Positions 1,012-24,325 of a stretch of 25,860 nt of DNA are shown piece by piece. The position numbers were made by a program, and so were the translations under genes. Position 1 is the stretch's first letter, and each line of letters begins with the position of its first letter. The DNA is from a virus (Duplodnaviria > Heunggongvirae > Uroviricota > Caudoviricetes): the IMG/VR virus record IMGVR_UViG_3300045988_049160, one strand, 5' to 3'. A model generated the notes under the pieces. It had not been told where the DNA came from and made no database searches. It saw only the letters and a list, made by a program, of their open reading frames with translations.

Positions 1012-1030
1012 ATTGCATGGAGAAGATAAG

Positions 1031-1288
1031 ATGCAGCAGTATCACTATCCACTGGAAGACGGATTTACCGAAAGGATTCACACGCCGGGAGGCGTCAGGT
1101 CACTGGTGGAGGGATCGCACTTGATGAAATTACTCCGGGATCTCGATAAGGATGGATTTAATGTCGATGGCCCACTTGCCGAACTGACTGCACTGATTAA
1201 CTACGTCACCAGCTCACAGATGTCTATGCAGGATCTGCAAACACATCTCGACTATTGTGCCGAACAATTACGAAAACAAACCCGGTAA
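1031..1288 (+). CDS. Small (85 aa) antirepressor-like protein, paralogous to the C-terminal domain of the Bro-N antirepressor at 2435..3127; putative SOS-inducible antirepressor
   Basis: Internal ATG at 1031 preceded by GGAGAAG RBS; the annotated 908 start would put the operator and LexA box inside the coding sequence. IHTPGGVRSLVEGSHLMKLLRDLDKDGFNVDGPLAELTALINYV...DLQTHLDYCAEQL aligns by eye with IHSPSGVLGLTENSLLMNLLNQLQDDGHDVSGAAAELTTMFCYI...DIQTHAEYINDK of the larger protein. Confidence 0.55.
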   Translation: MQQYHYPLEDGFTERIHTPGGVRSLVEGSHLMKLLRDLDKDGFNVDGPLAELTALINYVTSSQMSMQDLQTHLDYCAEQLRKQTR

Positions 1289-1294
1289 ATTTAA

Positions 1295-1312
1295 AGGCCG
1301 CAAGAGCGGCCT
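1295..1312. terminator. Hairpin AGGCCGC-AAGA-GCGGCCT between convergent genes, likely bidirectional terminator (stronger for the minus strand)
   Basis: 7-bp GC-rich stem; on the minus strand it is followed by TTTAAATTT; overlaps the stop codon of the 1311..2039 gene. Confidence 0.4.
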
Positions 1313-2039
1313 ATCGTTTCGCTTTGTGCTCGTCCCAGCACGTTTTGCACCATGCCATTAAGCCGTCCGCATTTTGATTATTAGGGTAAAAGCTGGTCCG
1401 TTTTCTGCGGACATTACAAATTGGGCACCACTTCATATGGCGTGTATTCTTTGGGCCATCGAGACACCTTGCACACCACTTAGTCAATCCATCTGGATTT
1501 TTTGACGATTTCCGGAATTTGTCATATGGAAGGTTTATTCTGCATCGCAAACACTGCTTGCGGCCACTTGAAACTCTGTTAGCTGATTCTTCTTTTGGCG
1601 GCGATACAGAAGGTATTCTTGCTGGCTCTGATACTGCCTGAGGTGCTTTTTTAGATGACTGAGACGATATGTCATCACCAGGGAATCTTCCATGATATGC
1701 CGGACGCGTTGACACTCCAGGTGGAAGCTCAGCTGTAAACGGCTTTGGCTGAATCAGTTGCCTCTCTTTTGCTAACTCCTGCTGTTTATAATATGTCTGG
1801 ATTACCGCACTATCATAAGCAGGAGGTGCGGAAATATTAGGCGCATTACCTCCAGTTTTTTGAAACTGAGTAGAGGTGTGTTCTATCACCTGTGTACGAT
1901 TAATCGTTATCTCCCCATCTTCGGTCTTTATCGTTTTGTTATGATTAACGACCGTACGATCAGAGATCTTAGTCTTGTTCTGGTTGATAACGTAAATAAT
2001 CACCGCAACCACACCAACAACTATCCAGAAAACTTCCAT
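1311..2039 (-). CDS. Membrane-anchored protein with N-terminal transmembrane helix, Pro-rich linker and two tandem C4 zinc-ribbon repeats; function unknown
   Basis: 242-aa ORF; N-terminus MEVFWIVVGVVAVIIYVI is hydrophobic; C-terminus has two Cys-x2-Cys pairs repeated twice (CLRC...NPDGLTKWCARC and CPIC...NADGLMAWCKTC). GAGGAAAA RBS upstream of the ATG at 2039. Confidence 0.5.
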   Translation of the reverse strand: MEVFWIVVGVVAVIIYVINQNKTKISDRTVVNHNKTIKTEDGEITINRTQVIEHTSTQFQKTGGNAPNISAPPAYDSAVIQTYYKQQELAKERQLIQPKPFTAELPPGVSTRPAYHGRFPGDDISSQSSKKAPQAVSEPARIPSVSPPKEESANRVSSGRKQCLRCRINLPYDKFRKSSKNPDGLTKWCARCLDGPKNTRHMKWCPICNVRRKRTSFYPNNQNADGLMAWCKTCWDEHKAKR

Positions 2040-2058
2040 TGCTTTTCCTCACAATAAC

Positions 2059-2075
2059 ATTACCTTAAAGGTAAT
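2059..2075. promoter_or_regulatory. Putative operator ATTACC-TTAAA-GGTAAT (copy 2), perfect 17-bp inverted repeat
   Basis: Immediately upstream of the RBS of the minus-strand zinc-ribbon gene (ATG at 2039). Confidence 0.45.
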
Positions 2076-2152
2076 ATCTTGCTTTCAGGTGATCAAGCGT
2101 TAAACGCAATCAACCAAATACGGTTGATTTTAATATTTCTTCGCGTTTATCA

Positions 2153-2169: not shown

Positions 2170-2434
2170 TTACATCGCACTCCTCTTGTGCCATAGTAAT
2201 CGGGCACTGGCAAAATCCAGTGCCGGGATTGGTCTCCCGGATTACTACAGAGGCACATATGCCGCATAAGCGGTTTTTTTATGTGTAAAGCGCACCTATT
2301 CTATGGTGGGCTGTGTGGGGGCACCGAAAGGTGCGCCGGGTTCCTTTGTAGCCGGTAAGACCAACTCTGCACAGTTCACCACCATCTGATTGGTCTCAGC
2401 GGTGGTGATTAACCTAACTACAAAGGTGATCGCT

Positions 2435-3127
2435 ATGAATACCAAACCTTCCATCTTTTCCTTTGAGTCATCCTGCCAGATCCGTATGTTCATGATTGAC
2501 GGAGAACCTTGGTTTGTCACCAAAGATGTGTGCAATGCTTTGAATATTGATGTTACACAAGCGAGAAAACTTGATAAAAAAGGCTGGAACAAAAAGGGGC
2601 TGTATTCAATACAGACCCCTGGTGGAATACAAGAACTATCCATCGTTTCAGAATCAGGTCTCTACATCCTTATTCTGCGTTGCAAAGAGGCAATGACTGA
2701 GGGAACGAGAGCATTCAGATTTCTTGAATGGGTTACAGGTGAGGTTCTTCCTCAGATCCGCCGCACCGGAAGTTACATTAAAAACTCGCTCCCGCAGGAA
2801 GAACGCATAAAGATGGTTGCCGACCAGGTAGCCAACGCCACGGCGTCAGCAGTAATGCAGGCAATGAAGATAGAGAACAAAACCTACAGTGCCCCGCTGA
2901 AGCCCGGCTACCGCAGCCTGATTCATTCGCCGTCTGGTGTTCTCGGCCTGACGGAGAACTCACTGCTGATGAATCTGCTGAACCAGTTACAGGACGACGG
3001 GCACGACGTATCGGGCGCGGCGGCGGAGCTGACCACCATGTTCTGCTACATCGTCGGTGTGAGCAAATGCCTGCGTGATATCCAGACCCACGCGGAGTAT
3101 ATCAACGACAAAGCAGGGTTCTTCTGA
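2435..3127 (+). CDS. Phage antirepressor-like protein with Bro-N N-terminal domain
   Basis: ATG at 2435 with AGGTGA RBS; N-terminal region FESSCQIRMFMIDGEPWFVTKDVCNALNI...GGIQELSIVSESGLYILILRCKEA matches the remembered Bro-N/antirepressor pattern; C-terminal domain duplicated in the 1031..1288 protein. Confidence 0.6.
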   Translation: MNTKPSIFSFESSCQIRMFMIDGEPWFVTKDVCNALNIDVTQARKLDKKGWNKKGLYSIQTPGGIQELSIVSESGLYILILRCKEAMTEGTRAFRFLEWVTGEVLPQIRRTGSYIKNSLPQEERIKMVADQVANATASAVMQAMKIENKTYSAPLKPGYRSLIHSPSGVLGLTENSLLMNLLNQLQDDGHDVSGAAAELTTMFCYIVGVSKCLRDIQTHAEYINDKAGFF

Positions 3128-3211: not shown

Positions 3212-3228
3212 ATTACCCGATTGGTAAA
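3212..3228. promoter_or_regulatory. Putative operator ATTACC-CGATT-GGTAAA (copy 4)
   Basis: Lies between a TTTACA -35-like hexamer (3170-3175) and the RBS/ATG of the 3249 gene. Confidence 0.4.
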
Positions 3229-3248: not shown

Positions 3249-3575
3249 ATGAGCAGAAGATATGTCAAGGAGCTGGCTATAGAGTCTGGCACCCCTTTGG
3301 GTATCGTTCCTGGCTCCAACTATGCCAAGGCTTTAAACCGAGACTCTGTCGTCAAAGTTATATCAAGAGACATGAATATGGTCGGAGACGATCTCAGACG
3401 GTCAGAAAATCGTGTTTATGCTGAATATATAGTAAAGAACGGAAAAAAAATTGCAGCGCCTGCTGGCGGAAAATGGGCAATAGTGACAGGGAAAAACTCA
3501 AATGCAAGAGGAAAACCAGAAGCTAAAGGAATGTCCTTCGACAAATATGCAAAAATCTATTGGGCAACCAAGTGA
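3249..3575 (+). CDS. Hypothetical protein (108 aa), first gene of a small operator-controlled operon
   Basis: ATG at 3249 with GAGG RBS 5 nt upstream (the track start at 3234 is a TTG). No recognisable motif. Confidence 0.45.
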   Translation: MSRRYVKELAIESGTPLGIVPGSNYAKALNRDSVVKVISRDMNMVGDDLRRSENRVYAEYIVKNGKKIAAPAGGKWAIVTGKNSNARGKPEAKGMSFDKYAKIYWATK

Positions 3576-4050
3576 TAACGAAGAAACTGAGTTCGAGGAA
3601 GTTGAGGAAGGGCTAAGTAACGAGATCATTCAACACCCAGATGCCTTCACAAGAGTTCTTGATCGCCCTGAAATTCAGGAGATAGTTGTCGCTCACCATG
3701 CGTTTCAGGGTCCGCTTCCTCCCCCCTATCTGCTTCGCGGGTATCAGGATATTTTACCTGATGCCCCCGAACGCATCTTCCAGCTGACGGAGAAGGAGTT
3801 TGCTCACCGCCAGAAAATGGAGGAAAAGGCACTTGACGGGGCTATTAATAGAGATAAACGTGGGCAGTGGTTTGGCCTGAGTGCAACTATTTTTACAGTA
3901 GCTTGTGCAACATTATTAGGTTTAACAGGTCATGAAGTTCTAGCTGGCACAGTGATCGGTACAGTTGTTGCAGTGGCTGGTATTTTCGTTCTTAGACAAA
4001 AACCAAGCATCAAGAAGAAATCTGAAGACAACAAACCTGAAGAAAAGTAA
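3502..4050 (+). CDS. Membrane protein, DUF2335-like (two C-terminal transmembrane helices); start uncertain (3502 or 3547)
   Basis: ORF overlaps the preceding gene in another frame; motif GPLPPPYLLRGYQDILPDAPERIF...EKEFAHRQKMEEKALDGAINRDKRGQWFGL followed by hydrophobic segments fits remembered DUF2335 phage membrane proteins. Confidence 0.45.
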   Translation: MQEENQKLKECPSTNMQKSIGQPSDNEETEFEEVEEGLSNEIIQHPDAFTRVLDRPEIQEIVVAHHAFQGPLPPPYLLRGYQDILPDAPERIFQLTEKEFAHRQKMEEKALDGAINRDKRGQWFGLSATIFTVACATLLGLTGHEVLAGTVIGTVVAVAGIFVLRQKPSIKKKSEDNKPEEK

Positions 4051-4071: not shown

Positions 4072-4143
4072 GTGGACGAAACAAAAGTCAGTGCTACACT
4101 CATTGACGCCACATTGAGGTGGCTTATAGATGGAAATGTCACA

Positions 4144-4305
4144 ATGAAAAAAGCATTTGCTGCACTGTTCGTTTTGTTGTCTCTGGTAGCTTCAACTCAG
4201 GCCTTTGCCGGTCGTTGTCAGCACGACAGCGATACTGCCGCTGACGGCTCCCGCTGCGGTGGGCGTTCTGCGGATTCCCGCCCGGGCGGCGGTGGCATTC
4301 GTTAA
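4144..4305 (+). CDS. Small secreted peptide (53-aa precursor; predicted signal peptide MKKAFAALFVLLSLVASTQAFA; about 31-aa mature peptide with two Cys and Gly/Arg-rich tail)
   Basis: Internal ATG at 4144 of the 4072..4305 ORF; promoter-like TTGACG-17-ATAGAT upstream; own terminator downstream. Confidence 0.4.
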   Translation: MKKAFAALFVLLSLVASTQAFAGRCQHDSDTAADGSRCGGRSADSRPGGGGIR

Positions 4306-4328: not shown

Positions 4329-4340
4329 GTGACATGTCAC
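4329..4340. repeat. 12-bp perfect palindrome GTGACATGTCAC (copy 1 of 4), overlapping the lipoprotein stop codon and adjacent to the terminator
   Basis: Exact sequence; identical copies at 21728-21739, 22120-22131 and 24386-24397. Confidence 0.8.
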
Positions 4341-4717
4341 GCAACGCAATTATTACCGCGCCATGTAACATTTTTAATAATCTTATCAGCACCAAACTCA
4401 ACGTAAACAGAGCAACTGAAATGGAGTGTATAACCGCCATCAGTTGTTGCGTATGTGTTTGAATATATAGTATTACCAATTAGATTAGACGTAGTATTAT
4501 ACGTTGTGGTTTGTGGTACGTTATAACTACCAGAGCTTGAGTAAACATACACTCTGTTTCCATCTGGAGATGTAAGCTCTCCCTGAGGATACCCCCACTG
4601 CTGAACCATTGCGTCTATACTCTGCCCGCGCCACGTAAGCATATTTCTTTCAAACTGTGCAGCTGACTGGCATCCAACGAGAAGCATAAATCCAAAAATC
4701 AAAAATACTTTTCTCAT
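4337..4717 (-). CDS. Lipoprotein (lipobox LLVGC), Thr/Ser/Tyr-rich mature domain; function unknown (candidate exclusion or lysis-associated lipoprotein)
   Basis: Internal ATG at 4717 gives MRKVFLIFGFMLLVGCQSA..., a classic signal peptide plus lipobox Cys; last gene before the operon terminator. Confidence 0.55.
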   Translation of the reverse strand: MRKVFLIFGFMLLVGCQSAAQFERNMLTWRGQSIDAMVQQWGYPQGELTSPDGNRVYVYSSSGSYNVPQTTTYNTTSNLIGNTIYSNTYATTDGGYTLHFSCSVYVEFGADKIIKNVTWRGNNCVA

Positions 4718-4802
4718 AATTACCCCTATCATGGAAAAACAGCACCAATCCACAAATTAACTAGTTATTTTATTATTCTTCCGAACAATACAATTCCGAA
4801 TA

Positions 4803-20598: not shown

Positions 20599-20687
20599 AT
20601 CAATGACTCCGTACGCAATTAAATTATTACCAATTTAACCACATATGATTTATTTATCGTAGGTAGTTGACATTTAACGCACAAATT

Positions 20688-20704
20688 ATTACCTTTCAGG
20701 TAAC
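20688..20704. promoter_or_regulatory. Putative operator ATTACC-TTTCA-GGTAAC (copy 5)
   Basis: About 90 bp upstream of the gp6.7-like start, in the region where the structural operon must restart after the plus-strand moron insertion. Confidence 0.35.
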
Positions 20705-21025: not shown

Positions 21026-21102
21026 GTGGCATTAGCTCAGCTGGACAGAGCAACCGCTTTCTAAGCGGTTGGTCGCAGGTTCGAATCCTGCATGCCACGC
21101 CA
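21026..21102 (+). tRNA. tRNA-Arg (anticodon UCU)
   Basis: 77 nt with CCA; acceptor stem GTGGCAT/ATGCCAC, D-arm GCTC/GAGC, anticodon stem CCGC/GCGG with loop TTTCTAA, T-arm GCAGG-TTCGAAT-CCTGC. Related to but not identical with remembered E. coli argU. Confidence 0.85.
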
Positions 21103-21146: not shown

Positions 21147-21188
21147 GCGGTGATGGTTTCCCTTGAAGGACTATCACCGCCCTTTTTA
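21147..21188 (+). terminator. Rho-independent terminator downstream of the tRNA
   Basis: GGCGGTGAT...ATCACCGCC 9-bp stem followed by CTTTTTAC. Confidence 0.55.
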
Positions 21189-21265
21189 CAGCATGACGCC
21201 ATTGCGATGGCTTCATGCTGTAAACCAGTACAGCCACGGAAGGCATAACTCATTGCTTCCAGTTC

Positions 21266-21290
21266 GCCCGATTCGCCGGGCATTTTTTTT
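21266..21290 (+). terminator. Terminator-like hairpin plus T8 immediately 5' of gene A (GCCCG-ATTCGC-CGGGC-A-TTTTTTTT)
   Basis: GC stem and T8 run ending 10 nt before the ATG at 21301; the same cassette is duplicated before gene B. Confidence 0.4.
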
Positions 21291-21300
21291 AGGTGAGATC

Positions 21301-21723
21301 ATGAAAACAGCCGACATGCTAGCTAAATATCTAAATGAATGGCCGTGCAAATATGTACGCATTGTTCAGGGTGATGACTCAATTTTTTATGGTGTTTTTG
21401 CAGGAAATGAAATGCTTTGTGAAGCAATTCCAGGTGAGCGACTTGCCGGGTTAACGCTTAGCGATGACCATGGAATAGGAGTTACTTGCCATGACTGGAT
21501 TTCAGCGCAGAAAACTGAAATGGAAAAAGGCAATGTGTTTGATATTTCTCGCGCTGTATACGCCAAAGAAAAAAGTGATGATGATTACATGCGCGAAAAC
21601 TTATACAACATGAAGTTACAATGCCTGGCTGAAGTGCTTAGTAAAAGATCTTTACTTGATGTGGTTGGTGCTGAGCAGGACGCCAAGGCAATCAACGCCG
21701 CATTCGATAAAATAACCTTCTAA
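21301..21723 (+). CDS. Hypothetical acidic protein (140 aa), moron gene A
   Basis: ATG at 21301 preceded by AGGTGA; the track start at 21163 would run through the upstream terminators. Opposite orientation to the flanking structural genes. Confidence 0.55.
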   Translation: MKTADMLAKYLNEWPCKYVRIVQGDDSIFYGVFAGNEMLCEAIPGERLAGLTLSDDHGIGVTCHDWISAQKTEMEKGNVFDISRAVYAKEKSDDDYMRENLYNMKLQCLAEVLSKRSLLDVVGAEQDAKAINAAFDKITF

Positions 21724-21744
21724 CGCCGTGACATGTCACAATCA

Positions 21745-21771
21745 GCCCGCCGATTCGCCGGGCATTTTTTT
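21745..21771 (+). terminator. Rho-independent terminator after gene A (GCCCG...CGGGC then T7), also the leader of gene B
   Basis: Hairpin at 21745-21763 followed by T7, then AAGGTGA RBS and ATG at 21784. Confidence 0.5.
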
Positions 21772-21783
21772 AAGGTGAAAATC

Positions 21784-22116
21784 ATGAAAGAGAAGACTGC
21801 AGCTGAGCGCTATGCCGCAGCTATCAATGCCGCGATGGCGATTGTAAACCTGCGTGAAGAGATTAAAGATCTCCTTGCAATTATCCATAACAACCTGACA
21901 TGTACAGAGTTGCTTGGCGGTCAGTACAACGGTGAGGCGGTGAAGGAGGCATTTAAAAATGCCGAGGTAGGAATAATTCCAGCAAACTATGTCAAGGCTG
22001 AATGTGTGCTCCTAAAGGCACGAGTGAGTCTGCATGAAGATCCTGGTAATCTCGGTCGAACTGCAATGCGTTACGTGATAGACGAGTCGAATGCCAAACA
22101 CAATCTACCGAAATAA
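21784..22116 (+). CDS. Hypothetical protein (110 aa), moron gene B
   Basis: ATG at 21784 with AAGGTGA RBS; 5' leader almost identical to that of gene A. Confidence 0.55.
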   Translation: MKEKTAAERYAAAINAAMAIVNLREEIKDLLAIIHNNLTCTELLGGQYNGEAVKEAFKNAEVGIIPANYVKAECVLLKARVSLHEDPGNLGRTAMRYVIDESNAKHNLPK

Positions 22117-23682: not shown

Positions 23683-24275
23683 TGATTGCCATCCTGACGT
23701 TCTTTCAGTCTCTTCCTGGCTGCCGCTATGCGATCAGCAATTGTCACATTCACATTAACATCCAGGCGTTCTTTGAATGCGTTGACGTCGACGTGCTTAC
23801 CAATCAGTTCGAGGTTCTTCACCTTGTCAGGCCATTTAATTTTTTTGAGGATTGTCTCTATCGAATCCTCGTTCATGTTCATGATGGTCGATGACAGATC
23901 AAAGCCACTAAGCGTAGTGCGCCAGATTTTCGGCCACTCGCGGATTGGCTTAAGGCTCCCATCGTCGTTGAGGATGTCGATCACGTCCATCTGGTCGATC
24001 TCCACCAGGCGCATGAGAACGTAATCAGCACTGACGCGCATTCGTTTGTTGCGCTCTTCCATCAGCTCGGCAATCCGTTTTTGAATGCGTTCATCGCGCA
24101 TCATGAGACTGGCTTTAACTGCCGCTGTATTTGGGGAGAATCCTGCGTTAATCGCTGCCTGAGTCTGGTTTTCAGGCGTTTTGATGTATGACTGGCAATA
24201 AGCCTCCTGCATTGCTGTTAGTGGCTTAAATTGCGTTGATTTGCGTTTATAGGTTTTAGGTTCAGCAGGCATCAT
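23679..24275 (-). CDS. Terminase small subunit (putative); start at 24275 or 24272 rather than 24353
   Basis: Directly upstream of and coupled to terL; helix-turn-helix-like segment TQAAINAGFSPNTAAVKASLMMRDERIQKRIAEL typical of small terminases. The track start would place a terminator hairpin and low-complexity repeats inside the coding sequence. Confidence 0.55.
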   Translation of the reverse strand: MMPAEPKTYKRKSTQFKPLTAMQEAYCQSYIKTPENQTQAAINAGFSPNTAAVKASLMMRDERIQKRIAELMEERNKRMRVSADYVLMRLVEIDQMDVIDILNDDGSLKPIREWPKIWRTTLSGFDLSSTIMNMNEDSIETILKKIKWPDKVKNLELIGKHVDVNAFKERLDVNVNVTIADRIAAARKRLKERQDGNQ

Positions 24276-24325
24276 AACCACCGTGGTAATAGTTACCGTT
24301 GTGGTAATAGTACCATGCAAAATAA

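Follow-up and report, generated by a model that had tools for sequence, protein, structure and literature searches.

The DNA analysed here is a 25,860-nucleotide stretch from a virus of the class Caudoviricetes (IMG/VR record IMGVR_UViG_3300045988_049160), and the whole of this stretch is referred to as the window. At positions 1311-2039, its minus strand carries a gene for a 242-residue membrane-anchored protein with two predicted zinc ribbons. An original prediction, made from the sequence alone, had described this gene as operator-controlled cargo with a possible role in superinfection exclusion, abortive infection or regulation. The features of the gene and its regulatory region are listed here, with the type of support for each of them (pLDDT, predicted local distance difference test score).

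1311..2039, minus strand: coding sequence of a 242-residue bitopic membrane protein with two predicted zinc ribbons; ATG at 2039
2046..2050, minus strand: ribosome-binding site GAGGA, 6 nucleotides before the ATG, read from the sequence
1980..2033, minus strand: residues 3-20, single N-terminal transmembrane helix (AlphaFold2 helix with pLDDT of about 90; hydropathy; charge balance)
1881..1958, minus strand: residues 28-53, juxtamembrane beta-hairpin with the invariant G42 at the turn (AlphaFold2 strands 28-39 and 42-53; conservation)
1566..1865, minus strand: residues 59-158, variable and largely disordered spacer rich in Pro, Ser, Ala and Gln (pLDDT; low identity)
1464..1553, minus strand: residues 163-192, putative zinc ribbon 1, C-x2-C-x22-C-x2-C (regular-expression match; invariant Cys; pLDDT >90)
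1338..1427, minus strand: residues 205-234, putative zinc ribbon 2, C-x2-C-x22-C-x2-C (regular-expression match; invariant Cys; pLDDT >90)
2059..2075, no strand assigned: perfect-arm putative operator ATTACC-N5-GGTAAT, overlapping the -10 element and the predicted transcription start
2068..2096, minus strand: inferred sigma-70 promoter, TTGATC at 2096-2091, 17-nucleotide spacer, TACCTT at 2073-2068
1295..1312, minus strand: intrinsic terminator directly after the stop codon, with a 7-bp stem including 6 GC pairs and then a T-rich tail (terminator scan)
2108..2129, no strand assigned: 8-bp hairpin just upstream of the -35 element, at the cassette edge, with a terminator-like match on the plus strand

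Architecture and conservation of the protein

The open reading frame, its start codon and its ribosome-binding site are present as first described. The sole hydrophobic segment of the protein covers residues 1-19 (mean Kyte-Doolittle hydropathy of 2.33, the next best segment of 19 residues reaching 0.04), and the charges that flank it are -1 on the N-terminal side and +3 on the C-terminal side. An AlphaFold2 model built on the family alignment agrees with the one N-terminal transmembrane helix expected from the sequence, placing a helix at residues 3-20, followed by a beta-hairpin at residues 28-53 (pLDDT of about 73) and a helix at residues 77-93. The long Pro/Ser-rich linker that had been noticed corresponds to residues 59-158, 46% of which are Pro, Ser, Ala or Gln. 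It is mostly disordered in the model, with pLDDT values below 50 for most of residues 115-154. The C-terminal domain is modelled with pLDDT values above 90 in the complete protein and of 88.6 by itself.

We infer an N-out, C-in topology, with two residues in the periplasm, one helix in the membrane and the remainder of the protein in the cytoplasm. The ribbons are placed in the cytoplasm because of the positive-inside rule, and because a basic domain would be hard to export without a signal peptide. With only two residues outside, the protein has essentially no periplasmic part, and a ToxR-like membrane transcription factor was ruled out on this ground.

The cores of the two ribbons are NPDGLTKWC in repeat 1 and NADGLMAWC in repeat 2. 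The motif spacing and the cores thus stand as originally reported, but the repeats are homologous rather than 'near-identical', as they match at 10 of 30 residues (33%). The ribbon domain has a net charge of +15, a pI of 10 and conserved Lys and Arg residues, and for these reasons nucleic-acid binding appears to be the likeliest activity of the pair. The ribbons are also predicted to bind zinc.

Over its full length, the protein matches PHROG 6762, a family without functional annotation (E=3.1e-150, residues 1-242 on profile positions 1-242). A search of 5.8 billion proteins returned 33 homologue clusters, all from Enterobacterales and none functionally named. The alignment of this close family keeps the membrane helix, N21, T39, the invariant G42 and the Cys residues, and leaves the linker free to vary in length and sequence. 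Mean identity to the window protein is 76% in the transmembrane segment, 58% in the hairpin, 16% in the linker and 69-73% in the ribbons.

The family extends well beyond these close homologues. A profile of the ribbon pair matched 3252 clusters at E<=1e-3 among 1.84 billion representatives, many of them proteins of ~200 residues with the parts in the same order. In 30 of the relatives found with this profile, down to 26% identity, M1, G42, both Trp and all eight Cys are kept, so that the Cys pairs pointed out in the original prediction are conserved among distant homologues too. The combination of transmembrane segment, hairpin and two ribbons is conserved across Enterobacterales, Acinetobacter, Marinobacterium, Oceanobacter and Pseudoalteromonas. 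In the relatives P0088, P0091 and P0137 a coiled coil replaces the spacer, and in some others a J-domain replaces the anchor. In other ribbon proteins, 4-10 copies of the ribbon are joined to helicases (ResIII/DEAD or SF1), winged helices or HEAT repeats. Judged by its conservation, the gene is real and under selection. A literature search found no published description of this anchor-plus-ribbon architecture.

Remote relatives of the ribbon pair

Searches of Pfam, NCBIfam and PADLOC gave nothing above threshold for the window protein. The single Pfam family matched is Stc1 (PF12898; 21.5 bits, E=3.5e-4), under its gathering cut-off of 24.8 bits. The same match is found at E<=0.01 in 23 of 29 family members (best E=1.2e-4), and several distant proteins collected with the ribbon profile exceed the Pfam threshold for Stc1. 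The motif provides the eight Cys in two consecutive putative zinc sites that characterize the Stc1 domain, and these Cys are invariant family-wide.

Structure comparisons point in the same direction. The best Foldseek match in the PDB is the tandem zinc finger of Schizosaccharomyces pombe Stc1 (2LUY, E=3.3e-3, probability 0.89), and the zinc sites of Hpy99I and PacI are also among the matches, with weak similarity. A sequence-profile search of the PDB gave weak matches alone, to XPA and PacI (E=0.06-0.11). In BFVD, the Foldseek matches (E=1e-6 to 1e-3) comprise HNH/endonuclease VII (EndoVII) endonucleases of phages and giant viruses, zinc-finger proteins, and phage proteins described as 'Stc1 domain' proteins. 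No housekeeping fold, which the original prediction had proposed to look for, came out of the PDB and BFVD searches; they returned Stc1-like and endonuclease-associated zinc ribbons alone.

As for the endonucleases, three of their PHROG families (endonuclease VII/HNH families 1035, 2633 and 2255) match the ribbon region alone (residues 142-242, about E=1e-12 to 1e-5). The window protein ends after the second ribbon and has no nuclease domain, and no HNH or Endonuclease_7 Pfam match was found in it even at E<=10. By profile and predicted structure, the ribbon pair appears Stc1-like, and probably remote kin of both the Stc1 domain and the accessory zinc ribbons of phage HNH enzymes. As an accessory domain, this module occurs in viral homing-type HNH/EndoVII nucleases and in bacterial helicases.

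Other assignments were considered and rejected. The ribbons are not a degenerate HNH catalytic motif, given the missing HNH/Endonuclease_7 profile match and a different Gly-to-Cys spacing. In ZAS/zf-HC2 anti-sigma factors an N-terminal HxxxCxxC motif comes before the transmembrane segment; this order is reversed here, and there is no zf-HC2 Pfam match. The similarity to Lar-like restriction alleviation proteins is limited to a PHROG 5558 match over profile positions 7-47 of 130, the zinc ribbon only, with no Pfam Lar match. Searches of PADLOC-DB 2.0 at E<=1 returned 0 families for the window protein, and none for the neighbouring genes either. A Sie or exclusion annotation is absent from all 15 PHROG families matched at E<=1.

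An accessory cassette of phiV10-like prophages

Over ~80% of its length, the window shares 97-98% identity with temperate podophages of Escherichia coli of the phiV10 type (Uetakevirus, epsilon15-like), and by sequence it is a phiV10/epsilon15-like prophage. The whole target region was found only in phage TL-2011b, at 95% identity, where the open reading frame is intact and labelled merely as a miscellaneous feature. The gene is missing from phiV10, and two unrelated minus-strand genes occupy its place in EC.W1-9. In a pairwise BLAST comparison with EC.W1-9, the boundaries of the swap fall at window positions 1311/1312 and 2142/2143, which delimits a cassette of 831 bp. It contains the gene, the terminator, the promoter region and the small hairpin at 2108-2129, possibly an insulator or a terminator.

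Among complete E. coli genomes, 133 of 5426 (~2.5%) have the gene; all copies are chromosomal and all are annotated 'hypothetical protein'. An intact copy is present in 129 E. coli genomes. Enterotoxigenic E. coli H10407 is one of the carriers, and in strain EC67 the gene is found in a prophage beside yfgI. The description as cargo is borne out by this distribution, and the gene is an accessory mobile cassette with its own promoter, terminator and operator.

The alternative cassette of EC.W1-9 (L003, 2613-3528, minus strand) consists of two genes, for proteins of 168 and 139 residues, neither of which has a Pfam or PADLOC match. Its promoter, TTGCCA-18-TAGAAT, is immediately followed by an operator-like TTTACCCTAGAGGTAGT (region 3560-3600), and different cargo in the slot therefore has a common regulatory design. 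In a Pectobacterium prophage, the corresponding slot is occupied by a gene for 244 residues; it was considered as a paralogue and dropped, its translation having neither the N-terminal membrane helix nor the Cys pairs.

A probable repressor operator over the inferred promoter

The palindrome at 2059-2075, ATTACCTTTAAGGTAAT, is located 8 nucleotides upstream of the ribosome-binding site, where the original prediction had placed an operator copy. The proposal that it governs the gene gains from its overlap with the gene's -10 element and predicted start. Allowing up to two mismatches, ATTACC-N5-GGTAAT occurs 8 times in the window, for 0.75 occurrences expected, and 0 of 100 shuffled sequences reached 8. 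Seven of the sites are at 939-955, 2059-2075, 2152-2168, 3212-3228, 20688-20704, 24274-24290 and 24292-24308; the eighth is inside a coding sequence and probably fortuitous. Two adjacent copies of the motif are found inside the start of the small-terminase gene.

In phiV10 (L008), the motif is present at positions 31952, 32014, 32726, 33111, 35069, 35131, 26869, 24691, 20876 and 3251. The interval that separates the repressor gene gp40 from the first leftward early gene has two copies, one of them overlapping the -10 element of a TTGACA-17-AATTAT promoter, and one or two more are found between gp40 and the cro-like gp41. The motif also precedes the integrase gene and several other operons. Because of the positions that flank gp40, the motif is probably the operator of the main repressor, and Cro probably uses it as well; the phiV10 positions are the whole basis of this assignment. 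A search for an operator consensus string gave no match. Beyond the repressor/cro region, the motif precedes many operons and accessory cassettes. Such a distribution suggests that one repressor directly controls most transcription units in these phages.

The promoter at 2068-2096 was not called by a consensus scanner applying a 9-of-12 rule. Its layout together with the operator recurs elsewhere, as TTGACA-17-TACCTT plus operator at 20667-20704, before a tRNA-Arg cassette. Homologues of 61-64% identity in Enterobacter hormaechei (L004) and in viral contigs L064-L069 are preceded by TTGACC-17-TACCTT and ATTACCTTATGGGTAAT, in another place and another orientation in their prophages, and L071 has a variant of this arrangement. 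By sequence, then, the gene travels with a putatively repressor-controlled promoter. A dimer bound at 2059-2075 should block RNA polymerase, and the gene is therefore predicted to be off in a lysogen. It would be on after infection, induction or antirepressor action, and silent in a settled lysogen.

In seven related viral contigs (L063-L069), a perfect palindrome, TGTGACATGTCACA (TGTGACGTGTCACG in L066), is present ~45-60 nucleotides upstream of the homologue's start codon, just upstream of the promoter -35 element and right after the terminator of the preceding gene. Palindromes of this type may be sites for a second regulator, and there is none in the window's cassette. Around homologues in lambdoid contexts, a search for shared operators found shared CTTAG-type repeats in L099 and nothing clear in L102 and L098.

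The antirepressor region and other cargo of the window

The gene diverges from a module whose RNA genes lie immediately across the divergent region. This module comprises an isrK Hfq-binding small RNA (2204-2280, plus strand, 74.7 bits) and a C4 antisense RNA (2299-2386, plus strand, 78.6 bits), both at Rfam gathering level, followed by a gene for a Bro-N protein (2435-3127, plus strand; Pfam Bro-N). A promoter-like site at 2169-2197 would start transcription at ~2204, and its -35 element is abutted by the operator copy at 2152-2168. The isrK region is predicted to form a stable fold (z=-5.0). In Gifsy-1, isrK-orf45-anrP is an RNA-controlled antirepressor module that drives prophage induction (PMC4825925). 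The isrK/C4/Bro-N stretch of this epsilon15-like phage resembles an immI-like module, with an antirepressor under RNA control. The target gene therefore lies at the edge of a secondary-immunity (antirepressor) region, between the tailspike and the ejection-protein genes.

Some observations concern the neighbours themselves. The ATGA start of the Bro-N gene could overlap the stop codon of a short upstream open reading frame, as in the Gifsy-1 orf45-anrP coupling; no such upstream frame was identified in the window. An 86-residue protein similar to epsilon15 gp19 (1028-1288, plus strand) matches the C-terminal domain of the Bro-N protein with 42% identity over 74 residues (E=1e-15) and is a stand-alone paralogue of this domain; the operator copy at 939-955 lies upstream of its gene. 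It could be a competitor or a partner of the antirepressor.

Between the antirepressor and the ejection-protein genes, the cargo includes a DUF2335 membrane protein gene (3502-4050, plus strand); a 181-residue gene placed in the same way in EC67 is annotated 'YafO family toxin' in RefSeq. Inspection by eye found a small Gly-rich protein with a hydrophobic, signal-peptide-like N-terminus (4072-4305, plus strand) and another protein in which LLVGC, a lipobox-like motif, closes the N-terminus (4337-4753, minus strand). The products of these three genes have no PADLOC or NCBIfam match. Between the portal and terminase genes, a plus-strand cassette contains tRNA-Arg (anticodon tct, 21026-21102) and two genes without assigned function (21163-21723 and 21733-22116), and the -10 element of its promoter is overlapped by the operator.

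Genomic contexts of the homologues

We examined 36 loci in distant viral contigs, and ten loci in species-representative genomes, where Edwardsiella, Acinetobacter, Marinobacterium, Oceanobacter, Aggregatibacter, Haemophilus, Pseudoalteromonas and Neisseria are named. The homologue adjoins a repressor gene in 24 of the 36 viral loci. In 22 of them (L110, L111, L113-L119, L120-L127, L128, L130, L132, L134, L138) it follows a repressor-type gene directly and in the same orientation, with a gap of 16-86 nucleotides or one small open reading frame in between, and in two (L129, L137) it is convergent with the repressor gene. Most of the remaining viral loci have an antirepressor gene within 0.5-1.6 kb.

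The species representatives show similar arrangements. In L096, L097 and L098 a repressor gene (CI-like, LexA-type) precedes the homologue in the same orientation; the two genes are separated by a terminator hairpin and then a ribosome-binding site in L096, by one small membrane open reading frame in L097, and by 18 nucleotides in L098. In L099 and L102 it is convergent with the repressor gene and divergent from an early recombination operon. In L094, L095 and L101 it lies beside Ant/Rha-type genes, and Ant/Rha/Bro-N neighbours are also found in L104-L108 and others. Other Enterobacterales prophages have the homologue in the same accessory stretch, with neighbours that vary among Bro-N/Rha antirepressor genes, toxin-antitoxin genes and small membrane proteins, and in Buttiauxella a small element combines it with recombinases and a CI-like repressor. 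Of all contextual features, linkage to the immunity switch is the most conserved.

In the Marinobacterium prophage (L098, 5654-6307, plus strand), the 3' end of the homologue is overlapped by a signal-peptide-bearing SNase-like/Excalibur gene, the product of which matches Pfam SNase (1e-24) and PADLOC C3a212 'SNc+LTD' (6e-8). There, repressor, zinc-finger protein and secreted nuclease may form a three-gene operon.

Discussion

Temperate phages place their genes for exclusion and abortive infection in slots next to the repressor gene or next to the antirepressor region. Lambda rexAB sits in such a slot, beside the repressor gene, and P22 sieA is a further example; sieA is cloned together with mnt (PMC10883804). 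In this context, the suggestions of the original prediction, namely exclusion, abortive infection or a sequestered regulator, are plausible, and they are strengthened because the gene is beside an IsrK/C4-antirepressor module and its homologue abuts the repressor gene in 24 of 36 loci. Among them we tentatively prefer, without holding it to be probable, a membrane-tethered DNA-binding factor of the immunity module that would act in exclusion or abortive infection. This preference comes from several features taken together: the cassette is accessory, the protein is anchored in the membrane, its spacer is flexible, and its zinc-finger pair is of nuclease/helicase type.

The spacer of ~100 residues would hold the basic ribbon pair out from the cytoplasmic face of the membrane, at which the conserved beta-hairpin would sit, and the ribbons would bind DNA at this face of the inner membrane. 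The protein would be an accessory component of the immunity region directed against incoming or competing DNA, either by exclusion where DNA enters, or by an abortive response once DNA binding has clustered the membrane anchors. Its synthesis would begin as soon as a cell is infected, or would follow induction or antirepressor action, and a settled lysogen would not make it.

Several points weigh against such an interceptor. No sequence or profile match to Sie, Abi or PADLOC families was found in PHROGs and PADLOC-DB 2.0, and the protein has a single transmembrane helix and no obvious effector domain. The classical prophage exclusion gene P22 sieA is expressed from the prophage (PMC10883804). 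The operator over the -10 element complicates prophage-expressed exclusion, as the gene should be silent there, a point missed by the original prediction. The direction of coupling also appears to differ, the homologues elsewhere being apparently co-transcribed with the repressor gene and the gene of the window apparently repressed by the repressor; expression right after infection would be the only phase common to both. Lastly, Stc1 of fission yeast links the RNAi effector Ago1 to the chromatin-modifying complex CLRC, according to PMC2875855, and the ribbons could therefore bind protein instead of DNA.

It is tempting to extend the preferred reading to a whole family of one-chain sensor-effectors, although we regard this as doubtful. 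They would make up a widespread, unrecognised immunity-region system of temperate phages across Gammaproteobacteria, sense DNA that arrives at the inner membrane or replicates near it, and block its entry or collapse the membrane by clustering of their anchors, with the repressor switching them on or off depending on the lineage.

Another, rather unlikely, possibility is that the protein is an early tether that anchors the phage's own DNA to the inner membrane and thereby organises replication, transcription or the lysogeny decision, in a helpful but not essential manner. Protein p16.7 of phage phi29 has an N-terminal anchor, a spacer or coiled coil and a C-terminal DNA-binding domain, the order of parts also seen in the window protein; the two are compared by architecture alone. 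By analogy, the same architectural logic could serve here: p16.7, which is an integral membrane protein, brings the phi29 genome to the membrane and has both phage DNA and terminal protein as its ligands (PMC4974454). The coiled coil in place of the spacer in P0088, P0091 and P0137 would fit a tether, as would the basic, nuclease- and helicase-associated domain and an operator-controlled promoter suited to early expression. However, a single phage genus has members that do without the gene (phiV10, EC.W1-9), so that its distribution is patchy, and its neighbours are repressor and antirepressor genes, not replication genes. Protein p16.7 itself differs by its zinc-independent fold, its Gram-positive host and protein-primed replication, and it has no linkage to immunity genes.

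We give no more credit to a modulator of the lysis-lysogeny switch, in which the zinc fingers would be an Stc1-like protein adaptor at the membrane. By holding the repressor, an antirepressor or a protein of the host (RecA or a protease, for instance), such an adaptor would tune establishment or induction. The persistent adjacency to a repressor gene (in the same 24 of 36 distant viral loci) or to antirepressor modules speaks for it, together with the direct coupling to the repressor's operator in the window and the linker role ascribed to Stc1, the nearest solved relative, in PMC2875855. Nevertheless, switch components are usually fixed in the immunity module, whereas this gene is accessory, most ribbon relatives are parts of DNA enzymes, and the opposite regulatory couplings are hard to square with one regulatory role.

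Takeover of the host is less probable still. An early membrane-bound, non-specific DNA binder could drag the nucleoid to the membrane and block division or segregation in lytic growth. This would agree with a predicted early gene repressed by the phage repressor, with the very high positive charge of the cytoplasmic domain, and with the resemblance of other cassettes under the same operator to lytic-phase helpers, for example the tRNA-Arg at 21026-21102. Yet the protein has no similarity to known division or nucleoid inhibitors, and many relatives are apparently co-transcribed with the repressor gene (gaps of 16-86 nucleotides), an arrangement in which toxicity would not be tolerated in lysogens. 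Finally, ribbons of this type do occur at the ends of HNH/EndoVII endonucleases, but a functionless, decayed homing endonuclease that has lost its nuclease domain and gained a hydrophobic N-terminus is highly improbable: the full architecture is kept to 26% identity with the eight Cys and both Trp invariant, which contradicts decay, the promoter and operator are conserved too, and 129 E. coli genomes have an intact copy.

Like the Stc1 domain (PF12898, 2LUY), the window protein has eight Cys in two consecutive CxxC...CxxC zinc sites, which are predicted here; Stc1 is a soluble eukaryotic protein, described as the Ago1-CLRC linker in PMC2875855, whereas the window protein comes from a phage, is anchored in a membrane and is very basic. 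HNH/endonuclease VII enzymes of phages and giant viruses have accessory zinc ribbons (ZR domains, PMC3592412) that are the same ribbon unit by profile (E down to 8.5e-12) and predicted structure (E=1e-6 to 1e-4), but theirs accompany a nuclease domain, in place of which the window protein has a membrane anchor. As for SieA of P22, it is likewise an inner-membrane protein of a temperate podophage, and its gene, which is accessory too, adjoins the ejection-protein genes and the secondary-immunity (antirepressor) region; SieA blocks DNA delivery across the inner membrane (PMC10883804). SieA has three predicted transmembrane segments and no zinc finger and is expressed from the prophage, and the PHROG search found no sequence relation between it and the window protein; the latter has one transmembrane segment, a large cytoplasmic domain and an operator predicted to silence its gene in lysogens. 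The homologue holds the position of lambda rexAB in 22 of the 36 distant viral loci. Unlike the RexAB sensor-plus-channel pair, it is a single small protein, and in the window its gene is under the repressor's operator and not beside the repressor gene. By the tests run, the window protein appears not to be a nuclease, a SieA relative, a ZAS anti-sigma factor, a Lar protein or a catalogued defence protein.

Temperate phages store their competitive weapons in a few fixed slots beside repressor and antirepressor genes, and the present family fills such slots. It spans Escherichia, Enterobacter, Serratia, Providencia, Pectobacterium, Edwardsiella, Acinetobacter, Marinobacterium, Oceanobacter and Pseudoalteromonas, and is still annotated as hypothetical. 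In epsilon15-like phages, an unusual feature is that the operator motif flanking the repressor gene recurs in each of the accessory cassettes. The gene product, an accessory membrane protein of the immunity region, is a clean, widespread and credible candidate for the exclusion of competing phages or for a part in the lysis-lysogeny switch, and as a single-gene system it would be easily testable. Should it prove to exclude other phages or to abort their infections, a membrane anchor joined to a nuclease-type pair of DNA-binding zinc fingers would be a first among such factors, and, being present in ~2.5% of complete E. coli genomes, the protein would be relevant to phage therapy and phage typing of this species. 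If, alternatively, it tunes the switch or tethers DNA, processes regarded as cytoplasmic would gain a step located at the membrane.

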